44,927 nucleotides of DNA from Candidatus Jorgensenbacteria bacterium RIFCSPHIGHO2_02_FULL_45_20 (GCA_001779535.1 MFKJ01000023.1:1-44927); one strand, 5' to 3'; positions 3,054-41,024 are shown, counted from the stretch's first letter. A program made the numbers and translations. Notes: a model not told the origin generated them from the letters alone.

Positions 3054-4313
3054 ATGAAGACCGCTTGCGAATATTTGTCCGAAATATTAGACGCCGAACC
3101 GCGGACGTTTTTGTCGCTTGATAAGCGCATGAGAGAAGCGTGCCCGAATGGAGCGCAGGCGCTTGAAAATGTCGCGGAAATGAACAGGAAGAGAGCTGAA
3201 AGCGCTTTGCACAAAATAAATTCCGGTGAAATGGAACTAACTCATGTCCGCGCGGCTCTAAGAAACGCGATACTCCTCCACGAAAAACAATTTATTTCGA
3301 TTCTTTCCAAAACCGCCGGTAACTCGGATTTTGAACGTGCCGCTAATCTCGCCCGCAGGATTTCAAGCGCGAAAAGCGGTTTCTTTCTTAAAATAAATAA
3401 AGCAGAAGAAATTCTGCGTGCCAACCCGCCCACCGCCTTGCTTGATTTTTTGGGATACGCGAGCGTGGACAAACTTATGGCAAATGAAGACATCGCCGAA
3501 ATTTTAAGCGCGCTTCGTTTTATAGAGCCGCAGGAATGGATGCTCAAAACATTTGATACCGCCTATAGCTCAATTTCTCCGGACTATTTTGAAGAGCGGG
3601 ATATAGAATTGAAAGTTTTAAGTGAAAAATGGACTGACGTAGGGAGGAAATTCACGGAGAAAAAACATCATAATGTGAGCCATCTTAAAGAATTCGGTAT
3701 AATTTTTCTAAATCCGGTAAAAATGAACGTGCCGGGAAAGTTTATTCGCGATTTTGCTTTAATCTTACATTATTTCCACGAGATAGAATTTTATTCGAAA
3801 CTTTTCAAGAAATACGCGGGGCAAATCGATTTCGCGGGGAAATTGAAGTCGCTCCTGCGCGGGGATGTATCGGAATCGGAAAACACAGCACCCGGTGAGT
3901 GGCTTATAGTACAGCGTTACCTCTGGAAGGAAAACCCGAAAGACCATCGGCTTCATTTACCGAGGGTAAATCCGGAGGCGCTTCACTGGACGCGCGGCGA
4001 ACGTGATTTTGCCTCATTCGCGCTCGAATTTGATGACTTTGACGCGGAACTGTGGCACGACCTTGATTGGGTAGGTGAAGTATTCAAAGATGCCGATGGG
4101 ACGAAAAAAATTGTGAGTTTTGGTTTGGAGGATAATGTTATGTCTTTTGTCTCGTTTATGGAGGGGAGAAACGAGTTCTTTAATTATCACCAAAGAGAAG
4201 CGATGTGGACGAAGATTTTTTCCGAATACGTGGGCGGCGAACAGGAAATGGAAAGGATGCTTTTAGACAACTTTGGAGAAGGGAAAGTGTGTTTCTTAAA
4301 AACATCAGATTGA
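3054..4313 (+). CDS. Hypothetical protein (ORF opens at 3024; ATG at 3054 avoids overlap with the kinase)
   Basis: A long uninterrupted ORF of about 420 aa on the same strand as its neighbours. No motif recognised. The TGA stop lies inside the 16S promoter -35 hexamer. Confidence 0.6.
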   Translation: MKTACEYLSEILDAEPRTFLSLDKRMREACPNGAQALENVAEMNRKRAESALHKINSGEMELTHVRAALRNAILLHEKQFISILSKTAGNSDFERAANLARRISSAKSGFFLKINKAEEILRANPPTALLDFLGYASVDKLMANEDIAEILSALRFIEPQEWMLKTFDTAYSSISPDYFEERDIELKVLSEKWTDVGRKFTEKKHHNVSHLKEFGIIFLNPVKMNVPGKFIRDFALILHYFHEIEFYSKLFKKYAGQIDFAGKLKSLLRGDVSESENTAPGEWLIVQRYLWKENPKDHRLHLPRVNPEALHWTRGERDFASFALEFDDFDAELWHDLDWVGEVFKDADGTKKIVSFGLEDNVMSFVSFMEGRNEFFNYHQREAMWTKIFSEYVGGEQEMERMLLDNFGEGKVCFLKTSD

Positions 4314-4339
4314 CAAAACCGCCGCCTTTCCAATATACT
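4310..4339 (+). promoter_or_regulatory. Sigma70-like promoter for the 16S rRNA gene
   Basis: TTGACA at 4310-4315 and TATACT at 4334-4339 (18-nt spacer), about 80 nt upstream of the 16S 5' end. Confidence 0.55.
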
Positions 4340-4486
4340 TTATTGGCGAAAAGAAGCGACTGGTCTTTTCCAATTAAATAGACAACAAAGAAATTTTTTA
4401 GTTGTCCCAATTTATTTTTTTTGAGGATTTGATCCTGGTCCAGGATGAACGTTGGCGGCGTGGATAAGGCATGCAAGTCGAACGGG

Positions 4487-4552
4487 CCAGTGCGTAGCAC
4501 TGGAATGACGATCCGCCGGTTGGCGGATGGAAATTCCACTGCTATGCAGTGG
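4487..4552 (+). repeat. Family-A three-hairpin module, short form, in the 16S helix-6/V1 position
   Basis: ccagtgcgtagcactgg-aatgac-gatccgccggttggcggat-ggaaattcc-actgctatgcagtgg. It matches 20781-20846 in the 23S at 64 of 66 nt. Confidence 0.85.
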
Positions 4553-4643
4553 CTAGTGGCAAACGAGCTAGTAACACCTTGGTACCTACCTCCGAGATGG
4601 GAATAATCTTGCGAAAGCAGGACTAATACCCAATGGCGCCATA

Positions 4644-4790
4644 CGCATCTCACTAAGGTGAGATGCGAATTCGAAATTTAAAATTTGAAATTCGAAATGA
4701 ATGAATCAATTATAAAATTGAATAATTAAAAATTCATTAAAAATTTCAAACTAAAAATTAAAAATTCGCACAGAACTTTAGTGAGGTGCG
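4644..4790 (+). repeat. Family-B insertion in 16S (V2 region), conserved termini and AT-rich core
   Basis: Starts CGCATCTCACTAAGGTGAGATGCGAAT and ends AAAATTCGCACAGAACTTTAGTGAGGTGCG. The same termini bound 20097-20199 in the 23S, and they interrupt an otherwise alignable 16S sequence. Confidence 0.8.
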
Positions 4791-5048
4791 GGTGGCTAAA
4801 GGTTCGCAAGAACCGCTCGGTGATGGGCCTAGGTCCGATCAGCTAGTTGGTAGGGTAACGGCCTACCAAGGCTACGACCGGTAGGGGAGGTGAGAGCCTG
4901 TTCCCCAGCGAGGAAACTGAGACACGGTTCCTACTCCTACGGGAGGCAGCAGTCGAGAATATTCCACAATGGGCGAAAGCCTGATGGAGCGACGCCGCGT
5001 GCAGGATGAAGCTTTTCGGAGTGTAAACTGCTTTTCTAAGGGAAGAAG

Positions 5049-5178
5049 CCGGTGCTTCGCACTGGAATGACGAATTTAGAATTTCGATTGAATTTCAGAA
5101 TGTTTTAAAAATTAACTCATTCAAGAATTCATTTAAAATTCAAAATTAAAAATTGGAAATTCCAATGCGGAGCATTGG
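5049..5178 (+). repeat. Family-A module, long form (AT-rich filler replaces hairpin 2), in the 16S helix-17/V3 position
   Basis: H1 is ccggtgcttcgcactgg, followed by aatgac, about 90 nt of AT-rich filler starting gaatttagaatttcga, then ggaaattcc and H3 ccaatgcggagcattgg. Confidence 0.8.
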
Positions 5179-5205
5179 TTGACGGTACTTTAGGAATAAG
5201 TCACT

Positions 5206-5245
<40 letters not shown>

Positions 5246-5489
5246 AAACGTTATCCGGATTTATTGGGCGTAAAGGGCGCGTAGGGGGCGCAGGCAAGTC
5301 CGTAGTTAAATCTCGGGGCTCAACTCCGAAACCGCTACGGAAACTACCGCGCTAGAGGACGTTAGAGGTAGATGGAACGCACGGTGTAGGGGTGAAATCC
5401 GTTGATATCGTGCGGAACACCAAAGGCGAAGGCATTCTACTGGGACGTTCCTGACCCTGAGGCGCGAAAGCGTGGGGAGCAAAAAGGAT

Positions 5490-6115
5490 TAAGTGTTTTT
5501 GTTTTATATTCACAAATAATTCTTCGTTTGTTATAAACCGGAATAATTTTTATTTTTCGTTTTCACGAAAAATATTGAACTCAACCCCTCGACGAGCTCG
5601 GGGGATTCAAACAGCAATATTTTTCTAACTTCAAATAAAAATTATTACGCGATTTATGAAACAAATTCAGAAAATATTTGTTCAATAAAACAAAAACCCA
5701 CCTGAGGGTAGGTGGAAAATAGTCCCTCCGCCGATTGGCGGAGATAACTCAGCTATATGCTGGAACACCCGAGTATCCAACGATACCGAAAGGTAAAAAT
5801 GCGTTGGTGCGGGCAATCAGCAGGGAAGTCGTAATTGACCCCTCAGAGACTATACGCAGAGCCCGTTGCGGAGCAACGGAATTACGAATTTAGAATTTCG
5901 AATTTTGGTTGAGCATCCAATTAAAAATTTGAAATTAAAAATTAGGAATTCCGCGCTTTGCGCGGTGAAGATATAGTCCGACCTCCGTGGCGACACGGAG
6001 AGATGAACAGAAATGATTCATCCCGCGACAATGTTTGTAATTTTGATTTTGAATTTGTTTTAAAATTTGAAATTAAAAATTAAAAATTGCACTTTGTCGC
6101 GAAGCAACAAACGTG
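5490..6115 (+). ncRNA. Group I intron in 16S at E. coli position 788, with no ORF
   Basis: It splits the universal GGAT|TAGATACCC. The 5' exon ends in U and the insert ends in G. The core strings TCAGAGACTATACGC and GAAGATATAGTCCGACCTCCGTGGCGACACGGAGAGATGAAC closely parallel the Tetrahymena LSU intron strings ACAGACUAAAUGUC and AAGAUAUAGUCGGACCUCUCC...GGAUGAAG (P7/P9 region). Confidence 0.8.
5863..5965 (+). repeat. Family-A module, long form, nested in the group I intron at the predicted P8 position
   Basis: H1 ccgttgcggagcaacgg is identical to the H1 at 21610-21626. It is followed by aattac, filler starting gaatttagaatttcga, ggaattcc, and H3 ccgcgctttgcgcgg. Confidence 0.75.
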
Positions 6116-6475
6116 TAGATACCCTTGTAGTCCACGCCCTAAACGATGTTCACTAGCTGTTTCGAGTATCGACCCTCGGGGTGGCGTAGCTAACGCGTTA
6201 AGTGAACCGCCTGGGAAGTACGAGCGCAAGCTTAAAACTCAAAGGAATAGACGGGGACTCGCACAAGCGGTGTGGTATGTGGTTTAATTCGATGGTAAAC
6301 GAGAAACCTCACCAGGGCTTGAAATCCCGACGAAGACAGTCCGAAAGGATTGTTGTCCGCAAGGACGGCGGGACAGGTGCTGCATGGTTGCCGTCAGCTC
6401 GTGCCGTGAGGCGTTCCCTTAAGTGGGGTAACGAGCGCAACCCCTATCCGGTGTTACAAGTGTCACCGGAAACCG

Positions 6476-6524
6476 CCCCCTCTTTTGCATCCGACGTTTT
6501 GTATGTCGGAATCAAAAGAGGGGG
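6476..6524 (+). other. Extended hairpin replacing the short 16S hairpin upstream of GGAGGAAGG
   Basis: CCCCCTCTTTTG...CAAAAGAGGGGG (12-bp stem) encloses an inner CCGAC/GTCGG hairpin. E. coli has only about 14 nt here (CCAGTGATAAACTGG). Confidence 0.7.
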
Positions 6525-6885
6525 AGGAAGGCGGGGATGACGTCAAATCAGCATGGCCCTTTGATGCCCTGGGCTACACACATGCTACAATGGCGGATAC
6601 AATGGGAAGCCAAGCCGTAAGGCGGAGCTAATCCCATCAAAGTCCGCCCCAGTTCGGATTGAGGGCTGCAACTCGCCCTCATGAAGCCGGAATCGCTAGT
6701 AATCGCGGATCAGAACGCCGCGGTGAATACGTTCTCGAGTCCTGTACTCACCGCCCGTCAAACCAAGGGAGCCGGGAGTGGGTGAAGCCCCCTCTTTAGA
6801 GGGTGTTAGCTCAAGTTCGGTGACACGGGTTAAGTCGTAACAAGGCACGGGTAGCGGAAGCTGTTCGTGGATCAATTAATTTTGT

Positions 6886-6920
6886 CGATTGCAAATCGCT
6901 GGAAGCAATTCGCTTTTTTT
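6886..6920 (+). terminator. Possible intrinsic terminator after the 16S
   Basis: Imperfect stem CGATTGC...GCAATTCG followed by CTTTTTTT. Confidence 0.35.
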
Positions 6921-7069
6921 CCGCCTTTATAAGTTAAGGCAAGAATGGCGGATAGCTTCAAGCGAGCTGCATTTGTCGCGCTGAAAAACAAGCGCAAAAA
7001 ACAGAGATGCCGTACTCTTAAAAAACGGCGCATAATTGGGGCAACTAAAAAGTTTCTTTAAAGAATATT

Positions 7070-7444
7070 ATGAAAATTCTACTCGTGGAAGACGAACCGC
7101 TTCTCGGTAACCTGCTTCGCGAGCGGCTCGCGCGGGAGGGTTTTGACGTAACACACGCGAAAAACGGCGAAGAAGGATTCGAATTATTGAAAAAATCCGT
7201 ACCGGATTTGGTGCTTCTTGACATTATTCTGCCGAAAATGTCCGGTTTTGAGTTTATGGAAAAAGTCAGAACTGATTCGGAACTCCAATCCGCTCCGCCT
7301 ATAGTGATTATCTCTAACTTAGGGCAGGACGGAGATATAGAGCGTGGGCAAGAATTGGGGGCTGTGGGGTATTTCATAAAAGCCAAGATTTCGATGGAGG
7401 ACTTGGTTTCAAAAATAAAGGAATATATGTTCCCCGCTACATAA
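7070..7444 (+). CDS. Stand-alone response-regulator receiver (CheY-like)
   Basis: 124 aa: MKILLVEDEP..., DLVLLDIILPKMSGFE, and the conserved K in YFIKA. Confidence 0.9.
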   Translation: MKILLVEDEPLLGNLLRERLAREGFDVTHAKNGEEGFELLKKSVPDLVLLDIILPKMSGFEFMEKVRTDSELQSAPPIVIISNLGQDGDIERGQELGAVGYFIKAKISMEDLVSKIKEYMFPAT

Positions 7445-7447
7445 AAG

Positions 7448-7456
7448 TTATCCACA
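7448..7456 (+). promoter_or_regulatory. Exact TTATCCACA (DnaA-box consensus) within the palindrome ATCCACAGTGGAT, upstream of pilin 1
   Basis: Read directly from the sequence. TATAAT follows at about 7485. Confidence 0.5.
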
Positions 7457-7527
7457 GTGGATTCTACACAGATATATATATATTGTATAATTGAACTAAT
7501 AAATAAAAGTCAAAACATTTAAATAAT

Positions 7528-8091
7528 ATGCACTCACAGGCAAAAAAAGGTTTTACCCTTATCGAGCTTTTGGTCGTTATCGCCATTCTCGCGGTTTTGG
7601 CAACCGCCATAGTCGTTATTTTGAATCCGTCCCAACTGTTAAAACAGAGTAGGGATTCAACGAGATTGTCCGATTTAGCGGCCTTAAACAGCGCTATAGC
7701 TTTATATCTTGCCGATTACGCAAGCGCGGCTTTTACTTCATCCACAAAATGCACGGGGAACATTAATCCGTCAGGTATCGCATGCGCTGGCAATGTTTCA
7801 ACATCAACGGTTGTTACCGGTACGGGATGGGTTACTATTGATTTTACTGACATCTCTTCCGGTTCTCCTTTAGCGCGTCTGCCGCTCGACCCGGTTAATA
7901 ACGATACATACGCGTACGCTTTTAAGAGCACCGCGTCTCCAACAAACACTTTTGAAATAGACGCGAGGATGGAAAGCTCAAAATATTCTTCGACGACACC
8001 GGCTTCAAGTATGACTGTAAATACCAAAGACGGCGGCAACGACGATGACTTTTACGAGATAGGAAACGATCCTGGGTTGGACTTGGAGTAA
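7528..8091 (+). CDS. Type IV pilin-like protein (prepilin N-terminal cleavage/methylation domain)
   Basis: MHSQAKKG|FTLIELLVVIAILAVLA is the class III signal peptide followed by the hydrophobic helix. Confidence 0.9.
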   Translation: MHSQAKKGFTLIELLVVIAILAVLATAIVVILNPSQLLKQSRDSTRLSDLAALNSAIALYLADYASAAFTSSTKCTGNINPSGIACAGNVSTSTVVTGTGWVTIDFTDISSGSPLARLPLDPVNNDTYAYAFKSTASPTNTFEIDARMESSKYSSTTPASSMTVNTKDGGNDDDFYEIGNDPGLDLE

Positions 8092-8124
8092 TATTTTCGG
8101 TATGTAAATAACAAAAAAGCGTTG

Positions 8125-8133
8125 TTATCCACA
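8125..8133 (+). promoter_or_regulatory. Exact TTATCCACA upstream of pilin 2; it sits in the loop of an AAAAAAGCG/CGCTTTTTT hairpin
   Basis: Read directly. TATAAT at 8155-8160 lies 6 nt upstream of the ATG at 8167. Confidence 0.5.
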
Positions 8134-8166
8134 GCGCTTTTTTGTTATTTCTGCTATAATAAGAGA

Positions 8167-8718
8167 ATGCAAGCATACAAAAAGGGTTTTACCCTTATTG
8201 AGCTTTTGGTCGTTATCGCCATTCTCGCGGTTTTGGCAACCGCGGTTGTCGTAATTCTTAATCCTGCCGAGCTTGTAAAACAAGGGAGGGATTCTACGAG
8301 AATTTCAGACCTTGCCGCGCTCCACAGCGCGATAGCGCTTTATCTATCGGATGTAAACGGAGCAAGTATAACATCGACAGAAACATGCACGGCGGCTCTT
8401 TCAAGCCCGCCGACTAACTTTACATGCGGAAGCATTTCAACCTCAACCGTTGTTACGGGTACCGGGTGGGCACCAATCGATTTTACTGATATCTCTTCCG
8501 GTTCTCCTTTAGCGCGTCTGCCGCTCGACCCGGTGAATGATACGACTTACGCGTATACTTTTCAGGGCGGTTCATTGAATACTTTTGAAATAGACGCGAA
8601 TATGGAAAGTACTAAATACGCGAGTGGAGGCGGAGGTGATGTTGAATCCAATAACAAAGACGGCGGCAATGATGACACATATTACGAAATAGGCAACGAC
8701 CCCGGGCTTGATTTGTAG
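8167..8718 (+). CDS. Type IV pilin-like protein, paralogue of 7528-8091 (ORF opens at 8122; ATG at 8167 gives a normal leader)
   Basis: MQAYKKG|FTLIELLVVIAILAVLA. It shares near-identical blocks with the first pilin. Confidence 0.9.
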   Translation: MQAYKKGFTLIELLVVIAILAVLATAVVVILNPAELVKQGRDSTRISDLAALHSAIALYLSDVNGASITSTETCTAALSSPPTNFTCGSISTSTVVTGTGWAPIDFTDISSGSPLARLPLDPVNDTTYAYTFQGGSLNTFEIDANMESTKYASGGGGDVESNNKDGGNDDTYYEIGNDPGLDL

Positions 8719-8719
8719 T

Positions 8720-9322
8720 ATGCTCCGTGGAATCGTTCCGGTTTTTTCGTTCGCTCTTCTCGCGGCATTGTTTTTCGTTCAGGTTTTTTTGCATAAAAAA
8801 GAAAGCGTTGAACGGCGCGACGCACTCATCGAACGTGCCGCTAAAATAGTTTTTGTTTTGGGACTTGCGGCCGTATTAGGGTATTATTTTTTTCTTGTAG
8901 CCGCTCAATACTCGACGTGGAAGAATTCCAATCCTCCTTTGAGTTTTCTCGTGCCTCCGTATAGAAGCATAGGATACGTCTTTTATTATCACTTTACACG
9001 TTTTCTTTTATATTACCTGCCGTCTTTTGTTGTTTCCGCGGCCATATTTATAAGCGCGAAATACGGAAACAAGCGATTCGGAGAACATTTTTTTGAGAGC
9101 GGCGAACCATATCTTGCGGCTGTTCCGCTTTTTCTCCTTGGGTATCCGGAATGGAATTATTTATGGATTCCTTATTTTCTCGCGGTTTTGGGGACGGTAT
9201 TCGCGGTTTCGCTGTTTCGAATAATTGCGGCGAAGCGGCAGGAAAGGTTTTCGCCTTATTTTTTATGGTTGCCTGTGGCAATAATTGGTATAATCGTTAG
9301 TGAGACGTCAGTGTTGTTTTAA
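8720..9322 (+). CDS. Integral membrane protein, function unknown
   Basis: ORF 8708-9322 with several hydrophobic segments. It lies inside the pilus cluster but shows no clear A24 prepilin-peptidase motifs. Confidence 0.55.
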   Translation: MLRGIVPVFSFALLAALFFVQVFLHKKESVERRDALIERAAKIVFVLGLAAVLGYYFFLVAAQYSTWKNSNPPLSFLVPPYRSIGYVFYYHFTRFLLYYLPSFVVSAAIFISAKYGNKRFGEHFFESGEPYLAAVPLFLLGYPEWNYLWIPYFLAVLGTVFAVSLFRIIAAKRQERFSPYFLWLPVAIIGIIVSETSVLF

Positions 9323-16244: not shown

Positions 16245-16979
16245 ATGGAAACCGAAAACGTTAAAAAAATATTACTCGAAATAAGAGCCGGAGTCGGAGG
16301 AGATGAAGCATCGCTGTTCGCGTGGGATATGGCTAAAATGTACCAAAAATACGCGATTAAAAAGGGATGGCATTTTTCCGTGATAGACGCGTCAGAATCC
16401 GGCGCACGGGGCTATAAAACGTTTGTGGCAGAAATAAGAGGTGATGGAGCGTATAATGCCTTAAAACACGAGTCCGGAGTGCATCGCGTTCAAAGAGTAC
16501 CTACTACGGAAAGACAGGGGAGGGTGCATACATCCACGGCTTCAGTCGCCATTCTCCCGATTGTAGAAGCAAAAGACGTACAGGTTAAAGAGAATGATCT
16601 TGAAATTACTTTTTCCCGAGCCGGCGGACCTGGAGGACAAAACGTAAATAAAGTGGAAACGGCGGTCAGAATACTTCACAAGCCGACAGGCATCGTCGTT
16701 TCGTCGCGCGAGGAACGTTCACAGCACTCAAACCGCGAAAAGGCGCTCGAAATTCTGCGCGCGAAACTTTTTGAGGCGCAACGCGAACAAGCGGTAGGAT
16801 CAGTGGAAGAATTGCGGCATGAGCAAATCGGTTCTGGGGAACGGGCGGAAAAAATACGCACATACAATTTTCCGGAAGATAGAATCACCGACCATAGGTT
16901 AGGTAAAAAATTCCACAATATGGAAAATATTTTGGAGGGTAACTTAGATAAAATAACGGAATCTTTTAACCCTTCTTAA
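16245..16979 (+). CDS. prfA: Peptide chain release factor 1 lacking the N-terminal domain 1
   Basis: 244 aa. It starts at the equivalent of E. coli RF1 residue ~105 ([15 protein letters not shown]), has the P-x-T anticodon motif (VPTTERQGR) and the GGQ motif ([10 protein letters not shown]). An in-frame stop at 16203-16205 precludes a longer N-terminus. Confidence 0.85.
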
Positions 16980-19744: not shown

Positions 19745-20096
19745 CATAATTACGAATTAGAAATGGATAAAAACGTCAAATATTACGCGGGCGGTTCGTC
19801 CTAAGTAAGCGTTTTTAGAACGCACCGGTCCGCCTCTAACGGCGGAATTTTTTTATCGTTTCGGAGAATCGACTGATGTTTTATAAATAAATAGCGAAAT
19901 CAGTTTTTTGAGGTAGAAATTATATCCGCTTGTTTTTATGGGAAGAAGCACGTAAGGGTGGATGGAGGATGCCTTGGCATTAAATGGCGACGAAGGACGC
20001 GGCGTAGCGGCGATACTCTTCGGGTAGGTGCGTAGCAACCTGTGATCCGGAGATGTCCGAATGGGGAAACCCTCTGCGGAAAACCCGCAGAACCGG

Positions 20097-20199
20097 CGCA
20101 TCTCACTAAGGCGAGATGCGAATGATTAAATTTTTATTTTTGTAATTTTATAAATAGAATTTCAAATTGAAAATTCGCATAGAACTTTAGTGAGGTGCG
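20097..20199 (+). repeat. Family-B insertion in 23S domain I
   Basis: Starts CGCATCTCACTAAGGCGAGATGCGAAT and ends AAAATTCGCATAGAACTTTAGTGAGGTGCG. The termini are near-identical to those at 4644-4790. Confidence 0.8.
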
Positions 20200-20254
20200 T
20201 TGGAGCGCACCTGGTGAAGTGAAACATCTCAGTAACCAGAGGAAAATAAAACAA

Positions 20255-20316
20255 GTCGTGCCTCACTTTTGTTCGGCACTCGATTTTATCGGTGGCGAGC
20301 AAGAGCGAGGCACGAA
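20255..20316 (+). other. Unclassified ~62-nt hairpin insertion in the 23S
   Basis: It interrupts GGAAAATAAAACAA | GAAAGATTCCCTGAGTAGCGGCGAGCG. The closing stem is GTGCCTC/GAGGCAC. Confidence 0.65.
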
Positions 20317-20317
20317 A

Positions 20318-20348
<31 letters not shown>

Positions 20349-20362
20349 GAAGCCTAAACCAG

Positions 20363-20428
20363 CCGACGCATAGCATCGGAACGACGATCCGCCAGCTGGC
20401 GGATTGAAATTCCGCTGCTATGTAGCGG
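20363..20428 (+). repeat. Family-A module, short form, in the 23S
   Basis: ccgacgcatagcatcgg-aacgac-gatccgccagctggcggat-tgaaattcc-gctgctatgtagcgg. Confidence 0.8.
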
Positions 20429-20675
20429 GTGGGGTTGCAAGGCAGGAAAAATTTTGCGTTTCGCGTAGGACTTCGCAAGAATAATTGCGCGAATCGCGAA
20501 AGTTGGTTACAAATCAGCTTGGTTAGCCGAAGTTATTGGAACGTAACACCAAAGAGGGCGAACGTCCCGTAGGCGAAAACCATGCGACCAATTTTTTTCT
20601 GTTCTTAAGTACCTCGAGGCCAAAATACCACGAGGGAAGCCGGGAGTACTATCTCCCAAGGCTAAATACATTTAA

Positions 20676-20718
<43 letters not shown>

Positions 20719-20780
20719 GCCCTGTTAGGGCGATGAAATAGTACCTGAAACCATCCACTTACAAAGAACCGGAGCACTGA

Positions 20781-20846
20781 CCAGTGCGTAGCACTGGAAT
20801 GACGATCCGCCAGCTGGCGGATGGAAATTCCACTGCTATGCAGTGG
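20781..20846 (+). repeat. Family-A module, short form, in the 23S
   Basis: Identical to the 16S copy at 4487-4552 except for the hairpin-2 loop (AGCT versus GGTT). Confidence 0.85.
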
Positions 20847-20952
20847 CGTGTGACGGTGTGCCTATTGAAGAATGAGCCAACGAGTTTATTTATATTGCGT
20901 GTCTAAGTCCGAGAAGGACGGAGGCGTAGGGAAACCGAGTGTTAATAGCGCG

Positions 20953-21100
20953 TATCGTGTCTCACCATCGTTCAGCACACGCTGATCTATGCCAATTGAG
21001 CCAATGATTAATGTGGATTATGTTGAAATGCATATCCGTATAAATCATTCTCAAGTCCGTGTTAATCCGTATCAGTGCCGAACGGTAGCGAGACACGATA
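20953..21100 (+). other. Unclassified ~148-nt long-hairpin insertion in the 23S
   Basis: The 11-bp closing stem TATCGTGTCTC/GAGACACGATA interrupts ...GTTAATAGCGCG | AGCAGTATGAATAAGACCCGAAACC. Confidence 0.7.
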
Positions 21101-21609
21101 AGCAGTATGAATAAGACCCGAAACCAGACGAGCTTGCCCTGGCCAGGGTGAAGTCCCGCGAAGGCGGGATGGAGGCCCGAACCGGTTGGTTGTTCAACAC
21201 CTTCGGATGAGTTGGGGTAAGGAGTGAAAAGCTAATCGAGTTTGGTAATAGCTGGTTCTCTCCGAAATAGTTTTAGGACTAGCGTCGGAATAAGATTCTC
21301 GGGGGTAGAGCACTGGATGATCGTGAAAGGGAGAAATCTCGCGCGATCAATCAAACTCCGAATACCGAGATATTGTTTTCCGGCAGTCAGACTACGGGGG
21401 CTAAGCTCCGTGGTCGCGAGGGGAAGAGCCCAGATCGCCGTCTAAGGTCCCCAAGTCCATGCTAAGTGTTAAAGGTGGTCGCGTTCCATAAACAGATAGG
21501 AGGTTGGCTTAGAGGTAGCCATCCTTTAAAGAGTGTGTAACAACTCACTATTCGAGGAATGCGGCGCCGAAAATTTATCGGGGCTCAAGCATGGCACCGA
21601 AGACGCGGA

Positions 21610-21781
21610 CCGTTGCGGAGCAACGGAAGCTCCAAATTCCAGATTCCAAATTCTAAATAAATTCTAAATTCTAATTTTCAAATATCAAAACGAATAATTG
21701 TTTTGGTCATTTGAATTTTGTGCTTTGATATTGTTTAGGACTTGGTGTTTGGTGCTTGGGATTTCCGTCGCTTCGCGACGG
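21610..21781 (+). repeat. Family-A module, long form, at the 23S helix near E. coli ~1170
   Basis: H1 ccgttgcggagcaacgg, then AT-rich filler with AAATTC repeats (the inverse of GAATTTAGAATTT), then gggatttcc and H3 ccgtcgcttcgcgacgg. Confidence 0.75.
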
Positions 21782-22452
21782 TGGTAGGAGAGCATTCCAT
21801 GAGCACTGAAGCAGAACCCGTGAGGGGCTGTGGAGCGCATGGAAGAGAGAATGTTGGCATTAGTAATCGCAATCCCGATGAAAACTCGGGACCCCGAAAA
21901 TCCAAGGTTTCCTCCGCAACGAAAATCGACGGAGGGTAAGGCGGCCCTAAGGCAATGGCGAAAGCCGCAGCCGATGGACAGCCGGTTAATATTCCGGCCC
22001 TCCCGCTTTTTTTCGATGAAGTGACGAAGCAAAGTAGATTGAACGTCTTAATGGTTTGATGTTTTTGACCGAGTGTGGGTGCTAGGCAAATCCGGCATCC
22101 TGGATTCAATTCCGAACATCAGGGTAGAAACGAGGTAGGGTTTTTTGCCTTGCCAAGTCAATCGAGCTTGTTTCCGAGAAAAGCTTCTAGAGCTAAAAAA
22201 GTGGGATCCGTACCGTAAACCGCCACAGGTGGGTGAGGCGAGAAGCCTCAGGGGAACGTGTGAGTCCTCGTTAAGGAACTCGGCAAAAAAGCTAGGCGTA
22301 ACTTTGGGATAAGCCTTGCCAGTGCTTCGCACTGGCCGCAGCTAAAGTATCTCTAGCGACTGTTTACCAAAAACACAGCTCCCTGCGAACTCGTAAGAGG
22401 AAGTATAGGGGGTGACGCCTGACCGATGCGAGAAGGTTAACGATGGGGGTTC

Positions 22453-22518
22453 CCAGTGTGCAGCACTGGAATGACGATCCGCCAGCTGGCGGATGGAAGT
22501 TCCAACGCTGTGCGTTGG
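22453..22518 (+). repeat. Family-A module, short form, in 23S domain IV
   Basis: ccagtgtgcagcactgg-aatgac-gatccgccagctggcggat-ggaagttcc-aacgctgtgcgttgg. Confidence 0.8.
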
Positions 22519-23377
22519 GGGCTCACTGTCCGAAGCCCTCGTCAATGTCCGCGGTAACTATAACCGTGTTAAAGTAGCGCAATTCCTTTCCGGGTAAGTT
22601 CCGGAGCGCATGAAAGGCGTAACGACTGGAGAACTGTCTCAACGAGGAGCTCGATGAACGTGCGATACCCGTGAAGACGCGGGTTACCGGCAGCAAGACG
22701 AAAAGACCCCGGAAGCTTTACTGTAGCTTGATATTGGGAGTAATAGTGTAATGCGTAGCATAGTGGGGAGACTTTGAAAGTTCGCTTTCGGGCGGACCGG
22801 AGTCGCCAGTGAAATACCCATCTTTATATTGTTGCTTTCTAACCCGTACGGCAAAAACGTATGGGGACAGTGTCTGGCGGGCAGTTTTTCTGGGGCGGAA
22901 CCCTCCTAAAAAGTAACGGAGGGGCCTATTATGGTCAGCTTGGCGCGGATGGAAATCGCGCCTAAAGTGCAAACGCAAAAGCTGGCTTGACTGCAAGACT
23001 TACAAGTCGCGCAGGTGCGAAAGCAGAGGTTAGCGACCCGACTATTCTTTATAGAAAGGTAGGAGATAACGGACAAAAGTTACTCCGGGGATAACAGGCT
23101 GGTGTTGTCTGAGCGTCCCTAGCGACGACAACGCTCGGCACCTCGATGTCGGCTCACCACATCCCGGGGGTGGAGAAGCTCCCAAGGGTTTGGCTGTTCG
23201 CCAATTAAAGTGGTACGCGAGCTGGGTTCAAACCGTCGTGAGACAGGTTGGTCTCTATCTGCTGTCGGCGTGGGTGTTTGAGGGAAGTTGGCCCTAGTAC
23301 GAGAGGACCGGGCTGAACGAACCTCTGGTCTATCGGCTTTGCCACCAGGTGAATTGCCGAGTAGCTAAGTTCGGACA

Positions 23378-23411
<34 letters not shown>

Positions 23412-23478
23412 CTCCCAAGATTAAACACTAGTTCCGGGCAACTGGAACAACGCTTCCTGGAAGATTACCAGGTAAAAG

Positions 23479-23553
23479 CCGGTGCGTAGCACCGGAATGA
23501 TGATCTGTTATTAAGTTTGTTGAACAGATGGAAATTCCGTTGCTATGCAACGG
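23479..23553 (+). repeat. Family-A module with a variant hairpin 2, near the 23S 3' end
   Basis: ccggtgcgtagcaccgg-aatgat-gatctgtt...aacagat-ggaaattcc-gttgctatgcaacgg. Confidence 0.8.
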
Positions 23554-23685
23554 CGAATAGGCTCTAGGTGTAAGCGCAGTAATGCGTTCAGCCGAGGAGT
23601 ACTAAAAGTGTTATGTTTTTTCCCATTTCAATAAGCGGTAAAATTTCTATCTCAAAAAGCTGGTTTCGAAAATAAAAATTATTAT

Positions 23686-23819
23686 CAGTGGTTTCCCGGT
23701 GATCTAGCTGTATGTGCTCCACCTTTTCCCATTCCGAACAGAGAAGTGAAAGCATACAGCTCCGATGATACTTATCCCTTCGGGGATCGGGAAAGTAGGA
23801 TTCGCCGGGATACCACTAA
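23686..23819 (+). rRNA. rrf: 5S rRNA
   Basis: CCCATTCCGAACAGAGAAGTGAAAGC...CCGATGATAC...GGGAAAGTAGG. The terminal helix is CAGTGGTTTCCCGG / CCGGGATACCACTA. Confidence 0.85.
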
Positions 23820-28292: not shown

Positions 28293-28356
28293 CCGCCTCA
28301 CGGTTCTCATCATCTCTTAAAATAAGAGGGGATTAATGGGAGTCATTCTACTCTGC
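28293..28356 (+). repeat. pY/pR element, copy B
   Basis: ctcacggttctcatcatctcTTAAAATAagaggggattaatgggagtcattctactc. Confidence 0.5.
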
Positions 28357-30552: not shown

Positions 30553-30636
30553 GTGTGGTTTATAATGATATTCTCTGATTCGTACGAATAATAGAAAAAG
30601 AAACCAAAAAACAAATTTTTGTGATATTATTTTTAT

Positions 30637-32505: not shown

Positions 32506-32578
32506 CCCACTTTCCATAAAAGAATTATATCAGAATATTGCGCTTATTGCGGCGTATCGGATTTTTATATATTTAGCT

Positions 32579-35637: not shown

Positions 35638-36333
35638 CTACAAGCGGTCCGGGAAATCGGACAATATCCCGTCAACTCCGAGTGCCTTTATTTTTTTAAT
35701 GTCGTCCGGCTCGTTGACCGTCCACGCGAAAACCTTCAGTCCCTTCGTGTGGGCGCTATCAACAAACTCTTTTGTAACGAATTCAAACGATAAAATTATG
35801 GCCTGCGCTCCGAGTTCTACGCACAACTCGACATACTTCGGTGGTATGTCCGTAACCGCCACGCCGGTTTTTATGCGAGTTCCGTAACCGCCAGTATTTA
35901 TCTTATTAAACTCTCGTAGCTCCTGGCGATTAAAAGATAAAACCCAAAACACATCCGCCGGGGAACCCTTCTCCAAAATATATTTTCTGATAATTTCTGA
36001 AACCGGCCCCGCCGTACCCGCGCCCTTCAACTCTATAAATACGGTCGCTTTTTTATCCACCGAATCAAGTACTTCTTCCAAAGTCGGAATTTTCTCGCCC
36101 CTGCCGGCATCCAAAAGACGCAGTTCCGCGAGCGTTTTCATAGCCACAAAACCCTCGCCGCCCGTCGTACGGCCCACCGTGTCGTCATGAATCGCGACAA
36201 CCTCGCCGCTTTTGCATAAATGAACGTCAACCTCAATCGCGTCCGCGCCCAGCTTAATCGCCCTCCGGAAAGCCGCGATAGTATTTTCCGGCTCATATCC
36301 CGCCGCCCCTCTATGCCCGATTTTTATAAGCAT
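35638..36333 (-). CDS. Glycerophosphodiester phosphodiesterase
   Basis: IGHRGAAGYEPENT, EVDVHLCKSGEVVAIHDDTV and WTVN. Confidence 0.9.
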   Translation of the reverse strand: MLIKIGHRGAAGYEPENTIAAFRRAIKLGADAIEVDVHLCKSGEVVAIHDDTVGRTTGGEGFVAMKTLAELRLLDAGRGEKIPTLEEVLDSVDKKATVFIELKGAGTAGPVSEIIRKYILEKGSPADVFWVLSFNRQELREFNKINTGGYGTRIKTGVAVTDIPPKYVELCVELGAQAIILSFEFVTKEFVDSAHTKGLKVFAWTVNEPDDIKKIKALGVDGILSDFPDRL

Positions 36334-36448
36334 TTTACGAAATAATTTAATTTTGCCTCATTTCGCCGAACTCCGCCACCGCTTCTTATTATAACTTGTC
36401 CTGTTTTGCTGTACGGACGTGACACGTCCTAACATTTATTCTCTGATT

Positions 36449-36538
36449 TTTCTCCTCCCCCCTCTGCCTTTCTTTTCCTCTCTTCCGTTTCTCTTTCCCC
36501 TCTTAAAATAGGGGGGAGGGGGAGTTATTTTGCTCTCC
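36449..36538 (+). repeat. pY/pR element, copy D (longest pyrimidine arm)
   Basis: tttctcctcccccctctgcctttcttttcctctcttccgtttctctttcccctcTTAAAATAggggggagggggagttattttgctctcc. Confidence 0.5.
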
Positions 36539-36559
36539 GACAAATGATATGATCCGATT

Positions 36560-36709
36560 ATGGTCAAAAAAAATAAATTTGAAAAAATATTGTTTCCAAA
36601 CAAAGAATTCGCTTCGTCTTTATACAAAAAGTTAGGGTCGGAGTTTTATGACTATTTGGATAACATTAAAACTCGCATAGAATGGCATAAAAAAGAAAAA
36701 GGCTCCTAA
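36560..36709 (+). CDS. Possible 49-aa small protein (below the ORF-track cutoff)
   Basis: ATG at 36560 to TAA at 36707-36709: MVKKNKFEKILFPNKEFASSLYKKLGSEFYDYLDNIKTRIEWHKKEKGS. It is followed by the hairpin GGCTCCTAAGG...CCTTTCGGATCC plus TTTT and lies directly downstream of pY/pR copy D. Confidence 0.3.
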   Translation: MVKKNKFEKILFPNKEFASSLYKKLGSEFYDYLDNIKTRIEWHKKEKGS

Positions 36710-36802
36710 GGCACGAACACCTTTCGGATCCTTTTCCGTATTGATACGATACCATTATACGTCTTTTTCTTCCATAAAGTCAAAATTTGCGGATAATCCA
36801 TA

Positions 36803-36850
36803 CCCACTCTTTTTCTCTATTTCTTCCTCTTAAAATACGAGCTACCATCC
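36803..36850 (+). repeat. pY/pR element, truncated copy E (no purine arm)
   Basis: cccactctttttctctatttcttcctcTTAAAATAcgagctaccatcc. Confidence 0.4.
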
Positions 36851-37002
36851 TGTACCACCCAACACCCATTTTTATATCTATTTTTCACCACGCTTTTCAA
36901 TTTACTGTTTTGTCTATACTGTTTTAAATAATTGTGTGTTAATCACTACACGTGAGGTAATAACCATATACCACTACCATCTTCGAAATAAAAAGCAAAA
37001 AC

Positions 37003-37410
37003 CTAATCAAAATTTATTGTAAAGTTATACATCCCCATAGCACAAAGTCCTTGCAGAGTCGTTCCGGCTTTTTGCGGAGGCACATTGATAAGTGTCTCAC
37101 CCGAAGGAGGAAGATTTTTGCGATAGCCCAAACTCGGGATGCTTATGGCAGACGAGCAATCGAACGTCCCGCGGGTGTCAACTTTAATAACAGTTGGCAT
37201 ATCGGCTTTAGCGGTCGTAACTTTTGGAGAATAGCCGCCCTTCGCGCTTATTGTGATAATCTGCTTGCCGAGAATGATGCTTACGTTGTTTGCGTCTTGC
37301 GCCGCCGCGCCAGCGCCATTCGAATTACCATTTTTCAAAACAAACATAATAGCTCCTCCGATAAGGACTGCGGCAATTATTATTGATACGGCAGTGGTTT
37401 TCATAGTCAT
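37003..37410 (-). CDS. Cupredoxin-like domain protein with an N-terminal anchor
   Basis: GGYSP...TFDCSSAISIPSLG...LINVPPQKAGTTLQGLCAMGMY, a pattern typical of small cupredoxin-fold proteins encoded beside metal exporters. Confidence 0.6.
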   Translation of the reverse strand: MTMKTTAVSIIIAAVLIGGAIMFVLKNGNSNGAGAAAQDANNVSIILGKQIITISAKGGYSPKVTTAKADMPTVIKVDTRGTFDCSSAISIPSLGYRKNLPPSGETLINVPPQKAGTTLQGLCAMGMYNFTINFD

Positions 37411-37454
37411 TTAGTTGTTTATATTTTATCAATTCTTTGTTTAGATATTGAGAA

Positions 37455-38440
37455 TCAGAAGCTGAAAAACGGCGGGATGGCTCCAAAAGCGACAAGCGCG
37501 TTGACCAAATTAAATATCCCAAAAAAAACAACAACCAATCCGGCGGTTTTGAAGAACACACCCGACTGCGCTTTATTGTGGATACCGAGCGAACTGAATG
37601 ATAGAAGCGCGAGCACCGGCAACGTGCCAAGGGCGAATGTAAACATGATAAGCGAGCCGCCCCAAAAACTGCCGGTAGTCAGTGTGTAAATCTGCATTGA
37701 TTGCGTAAAACCGCACGGCAGAAAAAATGTCGCAACGCCGATCAATAGAGGTGTAAGCGTATGGCTTATATTTTTGAGCCCATGAACGCGCTTACCGATA
37801 AAACTTGGCATGGTGGGCTGGATATTCTTTATTCGCGGGAATACATCCAGAAGATTAATGCCGAGAATCAGAAGGACGATGGCGACGACAAAACTTAGAG
37901 CTAAAGCGCCGGTCGCGCCGAGCTGGAACGCCGAACCAAGCACGCCAATCAGGCCGCCGAGCACGAAGAAAGAAACAAGTCGCCCAAGATGAAATAGAAT
38001 TTGCGGCCGCGCCTTGTCGCCCTCCTTTGCAAAGTTAGCAGACATCGAAAGCGCCAGCCCGCCGACCACGGCCATGCACGTTGAAACGGAAGCGATAAGC
38101 CCTATCACGAATGCCGTGCCGTAGCCAACTTGCGATGTAGTCACTAAATTTATGATGCCAAGTTTCTGCAAAATGATAAACAAAGCAATGAAACAAAGTG
38201 CGACAGGGAATGCCAGCCGAAAGTCCGACCACTTAGCATAATGTTTCTGCCTTTCAATAGAAAGCGTATATCCATGCGGCTTAATCACCTCGCTTAAGTC
38301 GCGTGCCACATGCTCGGCCTCCTTATCGCCGAACTCGCCGGTAACTTCGACACTTCCGGCACATCGCCAAGTTCGCTTTCAATAAGCGCTATACACGCCT
38401 TGCAATGCATGCCGTTTACGTGAAATATATATGTTTTCAT
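37455..38440 (-). pseudogene. HMA domain fused to a TauE/SafE (DsbD_2-like) membrane protein, interrupted by a frameshift/deletion in the HMA domain
   Basis: The ATG at 38440 gives MKTYIFHVNGMHCKACIALIESELGDVPEV and then runs out of frame to a stop at 38294. The rest of the HMA domain (SVEVTGEFGDKEAEHVARDLSEVIKPHGY) continues in the frame of ORF 37455-38309. Confidence 0.6.
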
Positions 38441-38443
38441 ATT

Positions 38444-40735
38444 TTATATTTTCTTTGCTTTAAGCCGTAATGAATTGCCGACAACCGACACGCTTGAAAA
38501 CGCCATCGCGAGCCCCGCGAATATCGGATTCAAAAGCCAGCCGAAAATTGGATAAAACAATCCTCCGGCAAGGGGAATGCCGACAATGTTATAAAAAAAC
38601 GCCCAAAAGAGATTTTGCTTGATACCGCGCATCGTGAACTTCGACAACCGCACGGCCTTCACCAGTTTCGAAATATCGCCATGAAGAAGCGTAATGCCGG
38701 CCGTCTCAATCGCTACGTCCGTGCCGGTTCCCATCGCGATGCCGACATCGGCCTGCGCGAGAGCGGGAGCGTCATTTATGCCGTCACCGACCATCGCTAC
38801 GATACGGCCCTCGCCCTGCAACTCTTTTATCTTGCTTAGTTTGTCGTCCGGAAGCACTTCGGATACCACATCATCTATGCCAACCTCCCGCGCAATCGTT
38901 TGAGCGGTATTTTTATTGTCGCCGGTCAGCATAACTACTTTGATATTGAGTTTGCGGAGATTCCGGACCGCCTCGATCGCCTCCGGCTTTATCGCGTCAG
39001 CGACCATCACGACACCGAGCACCTTGTCTGCGGCCGCGAGGATAACCGGCGTCCGGCCCTTCAGGGTTTCCTCCTCAATGCTCCGAGCATCAAATGCGAT
39101 ACCCAGCTCTGAAACAAGTTTGGTGTTACCGGCAAAATACCGGATGCCTTCAATTGTACCCCGCAGACCCTTGCCCTTGATTACTTCCAAATGTTCAACT
39201 GGTCGTAATGAAACCTGATTCAACCGCGCGCGTTCGACAATGGCATGCGCGATAGGATGTTCGGACTTGCTTTCAAGCGACGCGAGTATCGAAATAACTT
39301 CCTGCTCGTTATATCCCGAATATGTTTTAACTCCGGTGAGTTCCGGCTTGCCTTTGGTAATAGTGCCGGTTTTATCAAGCACAATCGTATCCGCTCTATG
39401 CAGTTTTTCAAGTGTCGCGGCGTCCTTGATTAAAATGCCTTCTTTTGCTCCTTTGCCGACACCAACAATTATTGCGGTCGGCGTGGCAAGACCGAGAGCG
39501 CACGGGCAGGCGATAACAAGAATGCCGACTAATGAAGTAAGTCCATAGGAGAGAGTTTGAGAAAAGCCGAGAACCGGTATCCCGATTACAAGCCATGCGC
39601 CAAGCGCGAGGAACGCAAGCACCAACACAATCGGTACGAATACGCCGGAGATTTTATCGGCGAGCGCCTGGATGGGAGCGCGGCTTCCCTGCGCGTTCTC
39701 AACCATTTTGATGATATGGGCAAGCAATGTCTCGGCTCCGACTTTTGTCGCTTTGAATATAAATGAGCCGATTGTGTTGATTGTACCGGCCGCAACCGTA
39801 TCGCCGGTATTTTTCTCAATGGGCATGGACTCTCCTGTAATCATTGATTCGTCAACAAATGACGACCCGTGAGACACGACCCCATCTACCGGAATCCTGG
39901 CACCGGGCTTTACTATAATTTGGTCGCCGTGCGCCACTTGATTTATAGAAACCTCTTGCTCCTCGCCGTCTCGAATAACGATTGCTTTCTTTGCCTGAAT
40001 ATTAAGAAGTTTTTCGATGGCGTCTCCGGTTTTTATTTTCGCTCTCGCTTCAAGATATTTACCGAGTGTAATAAAGGCGACGACCACAATGGTAACGTCG
40101 TAATATGTGTGCTGAACGTTGAGAAACGGCCGCAAGGATTCTTCGAACGCCGTTACAATAAAACTGTATGTAAATGCTACCGACGTACCGATGCCGATAA
40201 GCGTGTCCATATTGGCTTTGCCATAGCGCAAGAAACGGTAAAAGCCCATAAGGTACGGCTTACCGACCACGAAAAGCGTATACGTTGCGAAGATAGGCAG
40301 AAGATGGCGGACAAATTCATACATAGCGGCAGACATTTCGCGAATCACTCCGAACTGCGCCAGCGCATCAAGCCCCATAATGATAATGCTGAAAACGGCT
40401 ATGGGAGTGGCGGCTATTACTTTCGCCCGCATATCGGCGACCTCGGCGAGTTTGTCCCGTTTTGACTGGCCGATGCCGGTGTGATCGGCGCGCTCTTCCG
40501 CCGACATTCCCATTTCTTCAGCCGCAGGCACGACAAGCGAATATCCAAGCGGCTCGATGTGTTTAGATAGGGTATCGGGATTTGTTTTCAAAGGGTCATA
40601 GGAAACTTTCGCTTTTTCAGTCGCGTAATTGACTTCCACGGACTGGACGCCCTCCGTTTTTCTGAAGGTCTTTTCGATGATTGACGAACACGACACGCAG
40701 TGCATTCCTTTTACTTTGTATGTCTGGGTGTACAT
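38444..40735 (-). CDS. copA: Copper-translocating P1B-type ATPase
   Basis: N-terminal HMA GMHCVSCSS, the CPC motif (ACPCALGLATP), DKTGTIT and GDGINDAP. Confidence 0.95.
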   Translation of the reverse strand: MYTQTYKVKGMHCVSCSSIIEKTFRKTEGVQSVEVNYATEKAKVSYDPLKTNPDTLSKHIEPLGYSLVVPAAEEMGMSAEERADHTGIGQSKRDKLAEVADMRAKVIAATPIAVFSIIIMGLDALAQFGVIREMSAAMYEFVRHLLPIFATYTLFVVGKPYLMGFYRFLRYGKANMDTLIGIGTSVAFTYSFIVTAFEESLRPFLNVQHTYYDVTIVVVAFITLGKYLEARAKIKTGDAIEKLLNIQAKKAIVIRDGEEQEVSINQVAHGDQIIVKPGARIPVDGVVSHGSSFVDESMITGESMPIEKNTGDTVAAGTINTIGSFIFKATKVGAETLLAHIIKMVENAQGSRAPIQALADKISGVFVPIVLVLAFLALGAWLVIGIPVLGFSQTLSYGLTSLVGILVIACPCALGLATPTAIIVGVGKGAKEGILIKDAATLEKLHRADTIVLDKTGTITKGKPELTGVKTYSGYNEQEVISILASLESKSEHPIAHAIVERARLNQVSLRPVEHLEVIKGKGLRGTIEGIRYFAGNTKLVSELGIAFDARSIEEETLKGRTPVILAAADKVLGVVMVADAIKPEAIEAVRNLRKLNIKVVMLTGDNKNTAQTIAREVGIDDVVSEVLPDDKLSKIKELQGEGRIVAMVGDGINDAPALAQADVGIAMGTGTDVAIETAGITLLHGDISKLVKAVRLSKFTMRGIKQNLFWAFFYNIVGIPLAGGLFYPIFGWLLNPIFAGLAMAFSSVSVVGNSLRLKAKKI

Positions 40736-40739
40736 TAAA

Positions 40740-41015
40740 TTATTTGCGCTTCAGTTTGTACACCTTGAGGATTTCCTCTTTGGCTTTTTTGGTTTGGCCG
40801 GATTTCACCTGTTCGAGAATACAGCCGCTTAAATGGTTTTCAAGCAGAAGGTCCTCGACGTTTGAAAGTCCCTGTTTCACGGCCGATGTTTGCGTAATCA
40901 CGTCAATGCAGTATATGCCCCTCTCGACCATTCTCTGTAATCCGCGCACCTGACCCTCTATAAGTTTCAATCTCCGCACGATTCGCCCCTTATTCTCGTC
41001 CTTTATGTATTTCAT
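40740..41015 (-). CDS. csoR: CsoR-family copper-sensing repressor
   Basis: RLKLIEGQVRGLQRMVE...YCIDVITQTSAV...HLSGCI contains the CsoR C-H-C ligand pattern. The ATG at 41015 is preferred over the ORF-track start at 41027. Confidence 0.9.
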   Translation of the reverse strand: MKYIKDENKGRIVRRLKLIEGQVRGLQRMVERGIYCIDVITQTSAVKQGLSNVEDLLLENHLSGCILEQVKSGQTKKAKEEILKVYKLKRK

Positions 41016-41024
41016 GCCTAAAAG

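Follow-up and report, generated by a model that had tools for sequence, protein, structure and literature searches.

The only 16S rRNA gene visible in this stretch of 44,927 nucleotides (the whole of which is called the window below) is, as its sequence reads, a functional gene that has lost the core of its anti-Shine-Dalgarno (anti-SD) sequence. Pairing of a Shine-Dalgarno (SD) motif with the anti-SD is the textbook bacterial way of finding start codons; with the anti-SD core lost, it is therefore unusable for start-site selection in this organism. The explanation we favor, with a probability of roughly 0.78, is that of a Patescibacteria 16S rRNA without an anti-SD, in an organism where initiation would be SD-independent and would proceed by way of leaderless mRNAs, weakly structured start regions and coupling within operons. 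SD-independent initiation had already been proposed in an initial annotation of this DNA, and it is borne out by four measures: the 3' tail of the 16S rRNA, SD motifs at gene starts, SD-like words inside genes, and complementarity of upstream regions to the tail.

The window, whose DNA comes from groundwater, belongs to the Patescibacteria (Paceibacterota), its best 16S matches being Ca. Paceibacterota and Patescibacteria MAGs. It shows several CPR hallmarks: rRNA insertions together with an intron, a type IV pilus cluster, and a 16S gene (4417-6882) that is unlinked from the 23S-5S pair at 19942-23811. No tRNA genes were found in the window. The 16S gene and the elements within it are:

4417-6882, plus strand: 16S rRNA gene, 2466 nt against a model of 1533 positions (RF00177, 1284 bits, model positions 1-1533)
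5625-6000: group I intron within the 16S gene (RF00028, 57.9 bits)
6846-6869, plus strand: helix 45, intact, CACGGGUAGC-GGAA-GCUGUUCGUG (cmscan alignment and fold)
6870-6882, plus strand: 13-nt 3' tail, GAUCAAUUAAUUU (cmscan alignment to RF00177)

The gene carries several insertions, about 930 nt in all, and both helix 44 and helix 45 are intact; the GGAA loop of the latter holds the dimethyl-adenosine sites. A tail lacking the anti-SD had been placed at 6869-6882, and both the coordinates and the sequence (GGATCAATTAATTT) were right. Rfam aligns the 3' end of the small-subunit model, GAUCACCUCCUUU, to GAUCAAUUAAUUU at 6870-6882, with RF00177 positions 1521-1533 (GAUcACCUCCUUu) set against the tail at posterior '*' throughout. 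Because this alignment continues straight from the intact helix 45 with maximal posterior, the tail is homologous and of normal length. AUUAA, at 6875-6879, stands where the anti-SD core CCUCC would be: the substitutions are C to A, C to U, C to A and C to A at E. coli positions 1535, 1536, 1538 and 1539, all four C of CCUCC being changed and every U retained in a tail of the same length as that of the model.

No displaced copy of the core lies nearby on the plus strand, where CCTCC is missing from 5987 to 8932; the nearest copy before the tail is in the intron (5982-5986) and the next is at 8933. The earlier remark that none occurs in the roughly 190 nt past the tail is thus correct, and the same is true from the tail to the next gene and for 2 kb past it; a search for GATCACCTCCTT allowing three mismatches returned nothing meaningful. 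The tail had also been described as self-complementary. AAUUAAUU does equal its reverse complement, but the palindrome is not conserved in relatives. It was rejected as a functional feature: it occurs in only 4 of the 108 anti-SD-less tails listed, all four with the identical tail, and is therefore treated as coincidence.

The insertions in the 16S gene (4486-4552, 4662-4768, 5048-5178, 5862-5960 and 6034-6090) are mutually related and share the flanking modules GCCRGTGC..GCACTGGAATGACGA and TGGAAATTCCAMTGC..GCAKTGG. Among them an A/T-rich unit of about 33 nt, ATTWAAAATTTGAAATTAAAAATT, is present in 7 copies, and one of the related insertions contains the group I intron at 5625-6000. The 23S gene (19942-23624, plus strand) is about 750 nt longer than its model and therefore carries insertions too, none of them at the Rfam intron threshold.

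The window is far from alone in its tail. GTDB species representatives were scanned for helix 45 followed by GATCA and a non-C base, giving at least 119 loci (L001-L119), and at least 108 of these have A/U-rich tails without CUCC or UCCU. Among the matches listed, the anti-SD-less loci are almost all Patescibacteria/Paceibacterota, including Staskawicz-, Nealson-, Azam-, Lipton-, Harrison-, Colwell-, Campbell-, Lloyd-, Nomura- and Gribaldobacteria and Minisyncoccia, and the other loci are mostly Verrucomicrobia with C1535U only. The closest of the matches listed is L108, a Ca. Paceibacterota MAG with 88.7% 16S identity, whose tail, ATTAATTT, is that of the window and whose trailer is similar too; L064, also among the matches listed, has 85.6% identity. 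A comparison with the rrs 3' ends of related bins, proposed in the initial annotation, shows similar G-free A/U tails at no fewer than 108 loci. A separate observation concerns L109, a Cytophagales MAG (CBDICC010000011.1) with a Bacteroidota 16S, a canonical-type helix 45 and the tail GATCATATTTTTT: this is a further anti-SD loss outside Patescibacteria.

In sequence the relatives' tails vary, with ATTAAACT, TTTATTTT, TTTTTTTA, ATTCCAAT and others among the matches listed. Across the 108 tails listed, position 1 is A or U, position 2 is U in 89% and position 3 is U in 92%, and the GC content of the 8-nt tail is 9% overall. G is found in 0% of them at positions 1-5, in at most 4% up to position 8, and in 14-21% from about position 10. 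This pattern suggests a tail of roughly normal length from which G and C are excluded, in other words one kept single-stranded.

The 16S precursor has an architecture of its own, with the following elements:

4310-4339, plus strand: promoter-like site for the 16S gene (TTGACA, 18-nt spacer, TATACT; 11 of 12 consensus matches)
4386-4413, plus strand: 5' strand of the pre-16S processing stem, directly upstream of the mature 5' end
6883-7032, plus strand: 3' trailer inside the precursor processing stem (fold z = -4.3)
6884-6888, plus strand: GUCGA motif in the trailer
6889-6973, plus strand: long trailer hairpin (fold z = -4.3), burying CCGCC at 6921-6925
7033-7060, plus strand: 3' strand of the processing stem, UAAUUGGGGCAACUAAAAAGUUUCUUUA, pairing with 4386-4413

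The two strands of the stem are predicted to form a perfect duplex of 26 bp (-34.1 kcal/mol), with an equivalent pairing in L108. Since the stem encloses about 150 nt beyond the 3' end defined by homology, extra 3' processing must be assumed. Direct pairing of the leader with the tail was considered and rejected, the minimum-free-energy duplexes being dominated by the distal stem 4386-4413 / 7033-7060. The trailer motif TTGGGRCAACTAAAAAG recurs in L012, L033, L088, L095, L099 and L108.

Two further observations concern what lies past the 16S gene. In most anti-SD-less relatives among the matches listed (L001-L119) a GTCGA(Y) motif is found 1-30 nt past the tail, and in many of those listed the 23S seems to begin only about 25-30 nt past the 16S; the window keeps GTCGA after its unlinked 16S (6884-6888), and ATCGACTG is also present in the 23S leader (19871-19878). 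The processing stem closes 10 nt before the response-regulator gene at 7070, with no terminator detected between the two; the mRNA of this gene may therefore be co-transcribed with the rRNA precursor and excised from it.

If the tail cannot pair with an SD motif, do the genes carry one? Thirty-eight genes were defined in the window, most of them with Pfam domains starting a few residues from the predicted N-terminus, and SD 4-mers (GGAG, GAGG or AGGA) were counted upstream of starts with one crude ORF pipeline for all sets, the E. coli control being a 50-kb region with 59 genes. The clade set comprises 553 genes linked to anti-SD-less 16S at the loci listed; its starts come from a crude longest-ORF caller, so that start errors blur its signals. 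An SD 4-mer is present at -20 to -4 in 13.2% of the window genes, the same 13.2% as at -40 to -24, with 8.4% in shuffled sequence; the corresponding values for E. coli are 52.5%, 1.7% and 21.4%. For the 553 clade genes the figure is 12.1%, against controls of 10.3% and 9.3%. There is accordingly no SD enrichment upstream of starts in either the 38 window genes or the 553 clade genes, the outcome expected by the initial annotation, which had described the starts it listed as A/T-rich upstream and without GGAGG. Those starts match ORFs with near-N-terminal Pfam domains and do have no GGAGG upstream, and the upstream regions of the window genes are A/T-rich. Coding sequence tells the same story: relative to codon shuffles, the observed/expected ratio of SD-like 5-mers inside genes is 0.95 (z -0.6) in the window, with no avoidance of such words, and 0.56 (z -4.0) in E. 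coli.

Only two SD-like motifs were found among the 38 window genes:

28326-28331, plus strand: GAGGGG, 5-10 nt before the start (28336) of a NUDIX gene
38318-38324, minus strand: AAGGAGG, 9-15 nt before a doubtful GTG (38309) of a DsbD-like gene

The second of these lies in a copper-handling cluster at 36300-41030, comprising a CopA-type ATPase, a CsoR repressor, a cupredoxin and the DsbD-like gene, in a stretch with a GC content of about 0.50 vs 0.44. The cluster may be an acquired island.

The start regions do carry other signals. A makes up 42-44% at -6 to -3 and U 47% at -1, and predicted folding energies (40-nt windows) are -2.6 kcal/mol at the window starts, compared with about -5.5 to -6.3 inside genes; a minimum of predicted structure at the start is found in the clade set as well. 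Leaderless mRNAs have a known computational signature, a -10 box some 12 nt ahead of the start codon, established by the work of Zheng et al. in 2011 and by GeneMarkS-2. A TATAAT-like hexamer (at least 5 of 6 matches, with A2 and T6 required) stands at -12 in 5 of 38 window genes (mean elsewhere 0.62; P = 3.6e-4) and in 43 of 553 genes of the anti-SD-less clade at the loci listed (mean elsewhere 9.1; P = 1e-16); it is not enriched in E. coli (0 of 59; mean elsewhere 0.35). In the 68 genes with a box, T at -15 (63%) and G at -14 (47%) make up the TG of an extended -10, and TTG at -35 to -33 corresponds to a -35 hexamer at 17-nt spacing. Among operon-first or isolated window genes, 6 of 23 have the box at -13 to -11, where 0.8 would be expected. 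Examples in the window include:

8155-8160, plus strand: TGcTATAAT, extended -10 at -12 to -7 of a pilin gene, if its start is the ATG at 8167
30625-30630, plus strand: TGaTATTAT, extended -10 at -12 to -7 of a gene starting at 30637
32524-32529, minus strand: TGaTATAAT, extended -10 at -12 to -7 of an EamA transporter gene starting at 32517
42172-42177, minus strand: TATAAT at -13 to -8 of a ParA-like gene starting at 42164
42308-42313, plus strand: TATAAT at -12 to -7 of a LexA-methylase gene starting at 42320 (Pfam LexA from residue 3)

With ATG 8167 as its start, the pilin gene has its N_methyl motif at residues 4-27, as in the neighboring pilin gene at 7528. The full promoter geometry puts the start of transcription on the A of ATG, from which we infer leaderless mRNAs; at the level of sequence, it implies that about one quarter of the window's operon-first genes would be expressed in this way.

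Some genes of the window have peculiarities of their own. The LexA-methylase gene (42320-43822, plus strand) is a single ORF in which an N6/N4 DNA methyltransferase is fused to a LexA DNA-binding domain and an S24 peptidase. A 51-nt intergenic element occurs twice (526-576 and 1724-1774; 76% identity), each time before a small gene, and the word AAAAAGTGYYATGG directly spans three start codons (75-88, 1153-1166 and 1755-1768) in one four-gene cluster (ASCH, unknown, NTP_transf_6 and DUF1653). The release factor 1 gene (16245-16979, plus strand) encodes only 244 aa, and its match to the prfA profile begins at position 101 of 347; the PxT (PTT) and GGQ motifs are retained. The gene upstream ends at 16205, leaving no room for domain 1, and the product therefore looks like an RF1 without its N-terminal domain, as far as the reading frame can tell.

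Several other readings of the tail have to be weighed. One is that the A/U tail has become a new anti-SD, and that a complementary, A/U-rich "SD" in the mRNAs, for instance AAAUUAAUU, would pair with AAUUAAUUU. Upstream regions are A/U-rich, some of them with AAATT or AATTAA, and the first three tail positions (WUU) are conserved in relatives among the matches listed. We nevertheless regard this as very unlikely. For 591 genes linked to anti-SD-less 16S at the loci listed, the upstream region from -25 to -1 was compared with the tail of the gene's own genome: the mean duplex energy was -0.66 kcal/mol, compared with -0.71 for another genome's tail and -0.68 for shuffled upstream sequence (Wilcoxon p = 0.55 and 0.66), and the longest complementary run averaged 3.90 nt, compared with 3.82 and 3.85 nt in the controls. 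Upstream complementarity to the own tail beyond controls, which the initial annotation had advised looking for genome-wide, was thus absent from these 591 genes by energy and by longest match, with no sign of a replacement SD pair. The relatives' tails among the matches listed also differ widely and give no sign of co-variation, an 8-bp duplex of A/U alone would be barely stable, and Amin et al. (PMC6107228) found no variant anti-SD with a matching variant SD.

It is also conceivable that the functional 16S rRNA does have an anti-SD, either because the mature RNA extends or is spliced to a CCUCC segment or because another rrs copy elsewhere in the genome has CCUCC. This would be in keeping with the trailer of about 150 nt enclosed by the processing stem, with the intron and other insertions already in this 16S, with the presence in the trailer of CCGCCUUUA at 6921-6929, and with the minority of genes that retain good SD motifs in anti-SD-less genomes (see below). 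Against it, the 2 kb downstream hold no plus-strand CCTCC, and CCGCCUUUA was rejected as a displaced anti-SD, its CCGCC being base-paired in a stable hairpin and missing from the trailer of L108, the closest relative among the matches listed. The depletion of G ends after about 8-9 nt, as for a tail of normal length (among the matches listed), at least 108 species representatives have the same type of tail, and internal SD-like words are not avoided. In metatranscriptomes sharing 16S words, depth for this organism was 0 beyond 6884 and only relatives' unitigs were found: one ending at about 6884 has a depth of 741 and one running on into the trailer 7.7 (a difference of about 100-fold), which gives a slight hint that the 16S ends at the usual position. 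A hidden anti-SD consequently seems improbable to us, if less so than a replacement pairing. Least credible of all, hardly worth entertaining, is that the tail is an artefact of assembly or binning, or the gene a decaying pseudogene. The sequence is metagenome-derived, assembly of 16S genes is difficult, and insertions of about 930 nt interrupt this one; but the locus recurs in independent assemblies (NCBI GCA_001002015.1 and several ENA assemblies), the BipA protein of the window being encoded identically on GCA_001002015.1 and several groundwater assemblies, and a DNA unitig is identical to 6878-7084 with no mismatch. The conserved 16S cores score 1284 bits with helices 44 and 45 intact, and the tail and the leader-trailer processing stem are common to relatives.

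Relatives that keep CCUCC offer some indication of how the anti-SD-less state arose. A metagenome scan for a CAC...GTG helix 45 followed by GATCACCTCC gave 120 loci (L121-L240), a canonical-tail set of unlabelled metagenome DNA that is classed as Patescibacteria by 16S similarity only; in 80 of 86 comparable loci the 16S is nearer to that of the Patescibacteria loci than to that of the non-CPR loci. SD 4-mers precede 11.8% of the 533 genes at these Patescibacteria-like loci, compared with controls of 9.8% and 8.8%, and few of the loci exceed 30%. The leaderless peak is present in this set, but it is weaker: the -10 box stands at -13 to -11 in 13.9% of operon-first genes at anti-SD-less loci vs 5.3% at CCUCC-keeping ones (Fisher p = 5e-5). 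Inside genes, avoidance of SD-like words is slightly stronger in the set with CCUCC (0.89 vs 0.93). Since contigs that keep CCUCC use SD motifs equally little, SD dependence may well have been lost before the anti-SD; that the pairing was abandoned before the anti-SD decayed in this part of Patescibacteria is a tentative proposal, to which we would give slightly less than an even chance. The heavier reliance of the anti-SD-less lineages on putative leaderless mRNAs points the same way, as does their tail, kept at normal length, single-stranded and free of G.

One result counts against the favored explanation: a genome without an anti-SD should not need well-placed GGAGG. Strong, correctly spaced SD-like motifs such as aaggaggaatacaATG are nevertheless present at 45 of the 553 genes of the anti-SD-less loci listed (about 8%; roughly 5-8% for well-placed GGAGG). 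At these loci GGAGG occurs 18 times near starts vs 3 times far from them, motif starts peaking at -13 to -11, and a small dispersed minority of genes with strong SD-like motifs is found in the canonical-tail set as well. The SD-bearing genes at anti-SD-less loci average 5 GC points above their neighbors (p = 0.002). Pfam searches on ten strongly SD-bearing genes from these loci found no common function, the ten comprising hypothetical proteins, PurQ-like, NAD kinase, NYN and a glycosyl hydrolase. The simplest reading is that the SD-bearing genes would be recent imports from SD-using organisms.

How might ribosomes of this kind find start codons? Under SD-independent initiation, about a quarter of operon-first genes would be expressed as leaderless mRNAs, with a -10 box at -12 to -7 and transcription beginning at the A of AUG. 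Other genes would have weakly structured, A/U-rich starts recognized by the 30S subunit together with initiator tRNA and initiation factors, the short bS1 possibly helping the 30S to recognize them, and within operons initiation would depend on coupling over short distances. The A/U, G-free tail would be a relaxed remnant kept single-stranded, rather than a new pairing partner, and the order of events would probably have been loss of SD dependence first and decay of the anti-SD after.

Absence of the anti-SD has already been published for this bacterial group; the finding is real but not new. The anti-SD motif CCTCCT was detected in only 48% of Parcubacteria, those without it overlap the group lacking uL1, and SD helices are probably not formed in them; bS21 is often absent in Parcubacteria, and bS1 is short in CPR (Tsurumaki et al., 2022, RNA 28:1041, PMC9297842). 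The rplA region lies outside the window. The window is a similar case, a CPR 16S without CCTCCT past helix 45 whose relatives belong to Parcubacteria candidate phyla, whereas the fate of the tail, the signals at gene starts and leaderless promoters were not analyzed in that study; a literature search for SD or leaderless-promoter analyses in CPR found nothing beyond it. What is added here is the finding of no compensating pairing, the leaderless promoter signature, and the observation that SD is likewise ignored by relatives in which the anti-SD is retained. All three are incremental, not surprising, and merit a genome-wide study.

Outside this group, 128 organisms without CCUCCU are listed by Amin et al. 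(2018, PMC6107228), among them Flavobacteriia, Blattabacterium, Mycoplasma and Carsonella; SD motifs are as a rule absent from such organisms, and a complementary variant motif was never found in them. The window and its clade resemble them in having a 13-nt tail without an anti-SD, no SD motif and no compensating motif. The same general rule for bacteria without CCUCCU is reportedly to be found in work by Lim et al. from 2012. The present case differs in concerning another phylum and a larger set (at least 108 species representatives), and in consisting of free-living or episymbiotic groundwater bacteria, the earlier examples being mainly insect endosymbionts or Flavobacteriia.

A different route is seen in Bacteroidetes, where bS21 helps to sequester the anti-SD; their initiation is said, in work by Jha et al. 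from 2021, to be SD-independent with an anti-SD that is present but sequestered. Genes without SD, enrichment of A at -6 to -3 and weakly structured starts are common to Bacteroidetes and the window, and the canonical-tail Patescibacteria-like loci, which keep CCUCC without SD enrichment, are Bacteroidetes-like in this respect; the anti-SD is hidden in the former and gone in the window. Actinobacteria and Deinococcus-Thermus are rich in leaderless mRNAs, keep the anti-SD and use SD for leadered genes. The TATAAT peak at -12, the extended -10 TG and the -35 TTG at 17-nt spacing are as in those phyla, whereas the window combines leaderless-type starts with an anti-SD that is entirely missing.

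A very large bacterial radiation without an SD helix shows that this mechanism is dispensable in nature. In practical terms, gene callers that score ribosome-binding-site motifs will misplace starts in these genomes, and neither the heterologous expression of Parcubacteria genes nor genetic tools built for these bacteria should depend on SD.
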